Source of the DNA: Escherichia coli
GTDB lineage: Bacteria > Pseudomonadota > Gammaproteobacteria > Enterobacterales > Enterobacteriaceae
Length of the DNA: 64,000 bases
Assembly (NCBI RefSeq): GCF_046105845.1
Contig: NZ_CP151004.1
Direction: 5' to 3' (one strand)
The position numbers and the translations under genes are program-made. The notes beneath the pieces were generated by a model. That model was not told the origin of the DNA. It was given only the letters and a program-made list of their open reading frames with translations, and ran no database searches. Positions 53,912 to 54,225 of this stretch are shown here, piece by piece. Within the stretch, counting starts at the first letter, position 1. Each line of letters starts with the position of its first letter.

Positions 53912-54225
53912 AAAAAAACTCCCTGTTGAAGGATGGAAATTGGTTGATATCTAATTGTGCTTATCAGTGCTTTGTGCGACAAATTGGTTAACCTGTCTGA
54001 CAACTTGTCTATGTTTATCACAACTTGAAATAAAGTCAGAAATTAAATATTAAATTTGTGCGCCAGGTTGTACATGTTTATAATCAATAAATGATGAGTA
54101 AATATTCATTAAACATATATAATAAATGCCGTCGATATTTATTCAGTTAGAAATATATTTTTGCCGAAGTTAATTAACGGGGGGGGTAAAAGAAGTGATT
54201 AATGCGCCCGTAGGCGCATTAATGA

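Follow-up and report, generated by a model that had tools for sequence, protein, structure and literature searches.

A terminator-like hairpin and a length-polymorphic G run between hemW and a TRAP transporter operon in Escherichia coli

Background

Rho-independent terminators of Enterobacteriaceae combine a G+C-containing stem-loop past the last stop codon of an operon with a U-rich stretch on the sense strand only. Here we describe a site of this appearance in a 64,000-nucleotide stretch of Escherichia coli DNA (contig NZ_CP151004.1 of assembly GCF_046105845.1), which is referred to as the window: a perfect hairpin at the 3' end of hemW and, next to it, a run of eight G, which is a run of eight C in the hemW-sense transcript. 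Both lie in the 314-nt, A+T-rich spacer between hemW and dctP, beyond which the genes of a tripartite ATP-independent periplasmic (TRAP) transporter are found on the same strand.

Polymorphic mononucleotide repeats in non-coding E. coli DNA were reportedly described by Gur-Arie et al. in 2000 (in Genome Res) and by Diamant et al. in 2004 (in Appl Environ Microbiol). The run considered here resembles such repeats in being an intergenic homopolymer that differs in length between natural isolates and has no demonstrated phenotype. It also recalls the homopolymer phase variation of Neisseria, Haemophilus, Campylobacter, Helicobacter and Bordetella, in that a slipping G/C homopolymer is placed beside a surface or transport operon; unlike the case of these contingency loci, however, we know of no ON/OFF phenotype of the hemW-dctP run. 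The hairpin, in turn, is comparable to the repetitive extragenic palindromes (REP) and bacterial interspersed mosaic elements (BIME) of the K-12 hemW-yggM region, as a palindrome immediately downstream of hemW that is able to stabilise a 3' end. A survey of homopolymeric tracts in Escherichia describes G/C tracts as the rare class, with an (A+T)/(G+C) ratio of 11.6 and a mean G/C tract length of 6.2; hemW, TRAP and this locus are not mentioned in it (PMC8928963).

The locus was compared within the window's own haplotype class (class 1) and with another large class of E. coli haplotypes, in which the runs are longer (class 2). As far as can be judged from sequence, the site is probably an ordinary terminator or 3'-end element of the hemW transcription unit, and the adjoining run is prone to slippage and, in class 1, most likely functionless.

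Results

The plus strand from 54160 to 54229, read directly, is tttgccgaag ttaattaacG GGGGGGGtaa aagaagtgAT TAATGCGCCc gtaGGCGCAT TAATgattac. The hairpin, identified by its fold and its conservation, occupies 54198..54223 and is assigned to the minus strand, that of hemW; on the plus strand it reads ATTAATGCGCC cgta GGCGCATTAAT. Positions 54198..54208 pair with 54213..54223 in a perfect stem of 11 bp, five of them G-C, closed by a 4-nt loop; the hemW-sense RNA is AUUAAUGCGCC UACG GGCGCAUUAAU, and a gap of 2 nt separates it from the TAA stop codon of hemW (54226..54228). The perfect 11-bp-stem hairpin that the first-pass annotation of this DNA had placed by the hemW stop is thus described there exactly. 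The predicted energy of the hemW-sense RNA is -17.2 kcal/mol against -6.6 +/- 2.1 in shuffles (z = -5.1; none of 200 shuffles was as stable). Perfect hairpins with a stem of at least 11 bp and a loop of 3-8 nt number 2 in the window, against 0.13 expected from dinucleotide shuffles; the hairpin exceeds chance.

On the hemW-sense strand the stem is followed by the U-rich tail CACUUCUUUUA (54187..54197, minus strand), with 6 U in its first 10 nt. The tail was read directly and also matches our scan for terminator-like sites, which requires at least 5 T in 8 bases beginning 0-2 nt past the stem; the scan called a site on the minus strand alone. Past the hairpin the plus strand reads GAUUACUCAGCG and is without a U tail. 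We graded the tail as moderate, not strong, because its first three bases are CAC. The position of the hairpin is the end of a transcription unit: yggS-yggT-yggU-rdgB-hemW form a tight cluster of five co-directional, closely packed genes, of which hemW is the last (according to the list of open reading frames, ORFs, and the RefSeq annotation of homologous loci).

For the comparison with relatives, dctP homologues were taken from one genome per species. In Escherichia sp. MOD1-EC7003, Citrobacter, Pseudocitrobacter, Kluyvera, Klebsiella, Phytobacter and others, dctP is directly preceded by hemW. Of the 23 other hemW-dctP genomes, 21 have a stem-loop of -10 kcal/mol or lower within 75 nt past the hemW stop, and in about 19 it starts at most 13 nt from the stop; the sequences of these stem-loops are mostly unrelated to each other. 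Since the position is kept and the sequence is not, an RNA-level 3'-end element is favoured over a protein-binding palindrome. In several other genera the tails are poor or only moderately T-rich; judging from general knowledge, some of these hairpins may be mainly exonuclease barriers on Rho-terminated transcripts.

In the E. coli haplotypes that were read, the hairpin is invariant except for a loop Y and one stem change. The latter belongs to class 2 and turns GGCGC into GACGC on the plus strand. It leaves a G.U wobble in the hemW-sense RNA, where all 11 pairs are retained at -14.5 kcal/mol, and a C/A mismatch in the plus-strand RNA (-12.2 kcal/mol, z = -0.6). The FCI23-type haplotype has 11 changes in the surrounding 90 nt and 0 in the 26-nt hairpin. 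The proposal of the first-pass annotation that the hairpin terminates or stabilises the hemW transcript is therefore supported by the U-rich tail on the hemW-sense strand only, the stem-loops at the same place in relatives and the G.U-compatible stem change.

Other identities of the hairpin were tried and rejected. A plus-strand small RNA (sRNA) or antisense terminator would have no U tail, and the class-2 substitution breaks the plus-strand hairpin. Rfam yielded no match at gathering thresholds near the site; the plus-strand similarity to the STnc130 sRNA (RF02084) scores 21.7 bits against a threshold of 55 and is limited to a generic terminator hairpin, GCGCCCGNAGGCGC, in another genomic context, STnc130 being located beside dmsA in Salmonella (PMC3632133). 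A REP or BIME element was dismissed too: the sequence does not resemble the REP consensus, the REPs of K-12 at this locus differ from it, and the hairpin is a single copy at the hemW locus, found in one place per genome (median 1, highest 1, with an 88-nt query that includes unique flanks).

The run itself, a length-polymorphic mononucleotide repeat established by run count and an allele series, is G8 at 54179..54186 and begins immediately distal to the U-rich tail, one base after it. The first-pass annotation had given G9 at 54178..54186: the run is real, its length was overstated by one, and base 54178 is C. The presence of G8 is not beyond chance, because G/C runs of 8 or longer turn up in 59% of dinucleotide-preserving shuffles of the window, with a mean of 0.93. 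G/C runs of at least 7 number 1 in the 64 kb, namely the G8, against 3.9 expected; the real sequence is depleted in such runs, and therefore the G8 stands out in that sense only. No ORF of at least 20 aa spans the run, and the sole nearby ORF, of 38 aa with a GTG start, is antisense to hemW and starts after the run; a coding or frameshift target is thereby ruled out. A sigma-70 scan of 53700..54500 gave two plus-strand sites against 2.5 in shuffles. None of its sites spans the run, and manual reading of hexamers around the run gave no proper -10, so that the run was rejected as a promoter spacer. It is unpaired in the predicted fold, and its flanks are A/U-rich, not C-rich.

A hemW-dctP spacer of this kind is carried by ~1,480 of 5,426 complete E. 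coli genomes, and the complete genome closest to the window is 99.1% identical to it over 3 kb. The class-1 alleles were counted with queries of 88-91 nt having identical 82-nt flanks, for which an identity of at least 99% means an exact match only; 975 complete genomes are reachable with these flanks. Exact matches among the 975 amount to 355 for G6, 339 for G7T (including strain 2019_APHA of sequence type 131, ST131), 44 for G6T, 34 for G7, 29 for G8, which is the allele of the window, 10 for G9 and 0 for G8T. In class 1, G6 and G7T are common alleles, and G8 is a minority allele. Strain AF39 has G5. A pattern scan of Illumina metagenome contigs gave 21 loci: G6 in 15, G7 in three, and G9, G6A and G7A in one each.

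Length differs also between near-identical haplotypes. The ST131 locus with G7T shows 0 differences across 2,800 nt of flank from the G6T loci of strains ZH193 and 5-1. Draft assemblies were looked up with the exact HemW protein of the window: GCA_044249515.1 (locus L084) equals the window, C8 included, over 5.1 kb; L082 shares both the spacer and C8; and L085 and L087-L089 have the local haplotype of the window (TACG loop, nearby single-nucleotide polymorphisms) but C7. With C7 and C8 among close haplotypes, the run length must change on the time scale of very close relatives. Like-named isolates carry one allele (4/1-1, 4/4, 2/0 and 4/0 all G7T; CREC-U1, CREC-U3 and CREC-36 all G6T), their relatedness being judged from names only; this weakly suggests that the run is inherited in the ordinary way and slips now and then, and does not switch rapidly.

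Class 2 comprises 516 complete genomes that were missed by the class-1 queries and carry AAC-Gn-AAGAAG; O111:H8, O103, O45:H2 and ECC-1470 are included. The loci that were read (L076-L080 and L092-L099, from O111:H8, O103, O45:H2, ECC-1470, M15 and drafts) are homologous to 54179..54190 of the window. Here the run takes the place of TAA(A) of the tail, that is UUA in the RNA, or half of the U-tract, and the sense RNA is CACUUCUU-Cn with n from 9 to 18. Alleles read directly are G10, G11, G12, G5AG7 and G7AG6. Lengths were sampled in 59 evenly spaced genomes as the span minus 78, all indels being assumed to lie inside the run: 9 nt in 2 of the 59, 10 nt in 9, 11 nt in 13, 12 nt in 10, 13 nt in 11, 14 nt in 11, 15 nt in 2 and 18 nt in 1. 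The spread is broad, with no dominant allele.

An O111 query with 2 kb of flank and the run deleted, for which mismatches were back-calculated from bit scores, gave G10 and G11 with 0 mismatches and G8 and G9 with 1 mismatch among the matches listed; as the ranking still followed gap length, these were alleles of at most 11 nt only. The class-2 Illumina drafts have T+C11, C11, C13 and C13. Drafts also break at the run: there is an N-run in L095 and poly-G junk in L096, and contigs end there in L098 and L099. Part of the length spread in long reads may be error; much of it is nonetheless real, in view of the interrupted alleles and the short-read data. The first-pass annotation had considered the tract long enough for slipped-strand length variation, and this is borne out by G5-G9 in class 1 and up to 18 nt in class 2 (complete genomes, metagenome contigs and drafts). 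The check that it proposed, a comparison of tract length across isolates, did not reveal an invariant tract: alleles differ among assemblies. In E. coli EPSSH018 (locus L100, NZ_CP125889.1) we observed an IS110-family insertion sequence, ISEc20, inside the run, as AAC-G9-[IS]-G6-AAGAAG at locus positions of about 1020..2484.

As to the origin of the run, the 8 homologous positions read GCGGGGGA, an interrupted form, in Escherichia sp. MOD1-EC7003 and E. coli VCSW7; the FCI23-type haplotype, represented by 29-34 genomes, has no run but GCGGGCATTTA, and Citrobacter has merely a CGCCC patch at the equivalent place. We infer that, in E. coli, substitution turned an interrupted octamer rich in G into a pure run and that slippage followed; class 1 would then have mostly contracted to G6 and class 2 expanded, while the interrupted forms G7T and G7A would have retained the 8-nt length.

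The regulatory region of dctP is putatively 53947..54066 on the minus strand, as judged by conservation only among 23 aligned upstream regions (Escherichia, Citrobacter, Kluyvera, Klebsiella and others). The conserved blocks, all on the minus strand, are a GCGCACAAA box at 54066..54054, a CRP-like site TGTGA-N6-TAGACA at 54022..54006, two TGT-N3-ACA palindromes at 54003..53993 and 53982..53972, which resemble GntR/FadR-type operators, and a -10-like TAGATAT at 53953..53947; the ribosome-binding site of dctP is also among them. Just downstream of the hairpin, the cross-genus alignment has a partly conserved TCG-N7/8-CGA motif, of which CTTCGGCAAAAAT (54157..54169, minus strand) is the Escherichia remnant. 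The run lies 113 nt upstream of the first conserved dctP block, the GCGCACAAA box, and about 225 nt upstream of the -10-like box. The terminator is the only element 5' of the run, and therefore no spacing-sensitive pair of sites straddles it. No regulator gene adjoins the TRAP operon, and no paper in the literature collection that was searched couples a TRAP transporter with yggW.

Genes around the site

The hemW gene, for the radical SAM heme chaperone, is a 378-aa ORF at 54226..55362 on the minus strand (TIGR00539 of NCBIfam, 471.8 bits with a cut-off of 205; RefSeq annotation of homologous loci). Downstream of it the same strand carries the gene of a DctP-family TRAP substrate-binding protein at 52925..53911 (TIGR00787, 280 bits; RefSeq annotation of homologues), a dctQ-like small permease gene at 52377..52889 (ORF list; homologue annotation, with Pfam DctQ in related loci) and the large permease gene dctM at 51076..52377, which is disrupted. 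In the alignment with the intact 433-aa gene of locus L001, dctM has one nonsense change, TGG to TAG at codon 41 (stop at 52257..52255), and no indels; the leftover ORF of 360 aa begins at profile position 53, and its TIGR00786 match spans profile positions 53-405. By this reading dctM is a nonsense pseudogene in the window. The same TAG is present in GCA_044249515.1, which has 0 mismatches to the window over the 5.1 kb mentioned above; the change is therefore probably real and marks the lineage of the window.

The dctPQM genes stand beside hemW in about 27% of complete E. coli genomes and are syntenic in many Enterobacteriaceae. K-12 (locus L002, 4405..4558), compared here with 51021..54225 of the window, has no TRAP operon and has REP elements between hemW and yggM instead. 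Near its stop codon hemW differs from that of K-12 at several synonymous positions, which suggests that the boundary of TRAP presence and absence lies inside hemW. We considered the run as the edge of an acquired TRAP island and rejected this, the hemW-dctPQM order being kept in Citrobacter, Kluyvera, Klebsiella and others. Since the order is conserved across genera, the operon is ancestral and K-12-type strains lost the TRAP genes; there is no link to the run.

Some further observations were made along the way. Three contigs of metagenome-assembled genomes (L024, L025 and L063, from GTDB species representatives labelled Collinsella, Bacillota and Alicyclobacillaceae) encode DctP 99-100% identical to that of E. 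coli, and L024 additionally has hemW and a C8 run; this is almost certainly E. coli contamination of the bins. Strain E4 (L068) has IS1 in place of the TRAP genes, and strain MS 21-1 (H94) has IS1 in the region. The other perfect hairpin of at least 11 bp in the window, at 22005..22035, has a 12-bp stem AAGCCGGATGAT...ATCATCCGGCTT followed by TCATTT; it sits directly past a 560-aa ORF (20315..21997) and resembles another operon terminator. At 51021..51075, between the convergent yggM (plus strand) and dctM (minus strand), the hairpin TTGCCGGATAA-N9-TTATCCGGCAA with A/T runs at its flanks resembles a bidirectional terminator.

Discussion

On the whole the site is ordinary, and one of its properties is of modest interest: the G run is very polymorphic, and it is hypervariable in a large E. 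coli haplotype class. The 26-nt palindrome probably serves as the 3'-end element of the yggS-yggT-yggU-rdgB-hemW unit, with the 11-bp hairpin and CACUUCUUUUA in the hemW-sense RNA acting as a Rho-independent terminator with a moderate tail, as a barrier to 3' exonucleases, or as both. The G8, C8 in the RNA, would then lie beyond the end point of terminated transcripts and well ahead of the dctP regulatory region. Replication slippage would add or remove G units, giving lengths that differ between lineages, even among near-identical haplotypes; the run of class 1 would most likely be a neutral mutational hot spot within a spacer that tolerates change.

Several points weigh against this explanation. 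The sequence after the stem opens with CAC, so the U-tract is non-canonical, and the poor T tails on the hairpins of several genera fit a stabiliser of Rho-terminated transcripts equally. The neutrality of the run is argued from its position and lack of conservation. In class 2, where the run stands in place of UUA (CACUUCUU-C9-18), an effect on termination efficiency is conceivable because half of the U-tract is replaced; the run could change this efficiency there, and the absence of effect that we propose may not extend to all E. coli. Lastly, homopolymer errors may account for part of the length variation among long-read assemblies.

It is natural to ask whether the run is a switch of the contingency type, whose length would act through read-through from a constitutively expressed hemW operon into dctPQM, or through the architecture upstream of the promoter, and give heritable, reversible variation of TRAP expression; the first-pass annotation had proposed that the run could modulate read-through or expression. 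The length polymorphism is indeed real and extensive, the run is placed between a terminator and a co-directional operon, and in class 2 it replaces the distal U-tract with 9-18 nt and no dominant allele, its length differing on 2-kb backgrounds with 0-1 mismatches. Still, we hold such a switch to be unlikely. In class 1 the run starts 3' of a complete tail, and therefore its length alters neither the hairpin nor the U-tract. It is neither in an ORF nor between a -35 and a -10, the nearest conserved regulatory block is 113 nt off, and upstream of it nothing but the terminator could be sensitive to spacing. Short alleles (G6, G7T) are the common ones, a pure run is missing from some lineages, and like-named isolate sets carry a single allele. 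In the window and in L084, moreover, dctM is stopped, so that a switch would act on an already defective operon and have nothing functional to control here. The proposed modulation finds no support in the anatomy of the locus. A form of it in which run length, above all in class 2 (the sampled strains include O111, O103 and O45 of Shiga toxin-producing E. coli), would tune read-through of the housekeeping hemW operon into a repressor-controlled TRAP operon, we regard as quite improbable. If true, run length would form a heritable and reversible expression switch driven by a repeat, and E. coli has no established switch of this kind; the G8 of the window would be at the short, mostly silent end of its range.

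Rho favours C-rich, unstructured RNA, and the C run, unpaired in the predicted fold, might aid the loading of Rho on transcripts that escape the hairpin; it would then be a C-rich backup terminator or insulator that shields a repressor-controlled TRAP operon from hemW read-through, and its exact length would be unimportant. Hairpins without good U tails in several genera are what Rho termination with exonuclease trimming would leave, and Citrobacter has its CGCCC patch at the equivalent place. This role is nevertheless unlikely: eight C are far short of a typical rut region, the flanks are A/U-rich, and a C run is missing at this place from the FCI23-type haplotype and from most other genera. 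Could the length variation instead be an artefact of assembly or sequencing, the tract being truly stable? Many of the complete genomes come from long reads, which miscall G runs, and the Illumina drafts L095, L096, L098 and L099 break, gap or end at the long class-2 tract. However, G6, G7 and G8 differ also among Illumina metagenome and draft assemblies, sets of like-named isolates have alleles in common, the interrupted alleles (G7T, G6A, G7A, G5AG7, G7AG6, GCG5A) mark distinct real haplotypes, and the allele frequencies (355, 339, 44, 34, 29, 10, 0) are highly non-random, so that an artefact is very improbable. We give equally little credence to the idea that the 26-bp palindrome works as DNA, bound by a dimeric regulator of the TRAP operon. 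The inverted repeat is perfect and lies inside the hemW-dctP intergenic region, but other genera have unrelated palindromes there, while sequence conservation is seen in the candidate operators near dctP. In addition, only the sense RNA tolerates the class-2 change, as G.U, and about 245 nt lie between the palindrome and the -10-like box.

For the window itself the finding is of little import: the hairpin is a routine operon terminator, the run is without an evident job, and a nonsense mutation has already broken the transporter downstream. Across the roughly 1,480 E. coli genomes, however, at least a dozen alleles of the run occur, and its long alleles belong to a class with major serogroups of Shiga toxin-producing E. 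coli. Strains could be typed by it at fine scale, and its length could report naturally on slippage or on mismatch-repair status; it is also a trouble spot for assemblers, short-read assemblies breaking there. Only a demonstrated effect of its length on read-through into the TRAP operon would make it biologically interesting.

Compared with the known systems, the hairpin has the sequence-level features of an intrinsic terminator. It departs from the Rho-independent terminators of Enterobacteriaceae in its interrupted tail (CACUUCUUUUA), in the C8 that follows at once and, in class 2, in the run that replaces half of the U-tract. From the homopolymer phase variation of the pathogens named above, the run differs in that it is outside any ORF or promoter spacer, that its common alleles are short, that it is not conserved and that the mismatch repair of E. 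coli is intact. Judged as a simple sequence repeat of the contingency kind, it does differ in length between and within lineages; it lies outside ORFs, promoter spacers and regulator sites, and no long tract is maintained across lineages (G6 and G7T are commonest in class 1, the run is absent in the FCI23 type, and it is interrupted in VCSW7 and MOD1-EC7003). The class-2 alleles of 9-18 G give the impression of being long for E. coli beside the survey mean of 6.2 (PMC8928963), although the run as a whole is of a familiar sort. It fits best among the non-coding mononucleotide repeats of E. coli, whose polymorphism has long been known.

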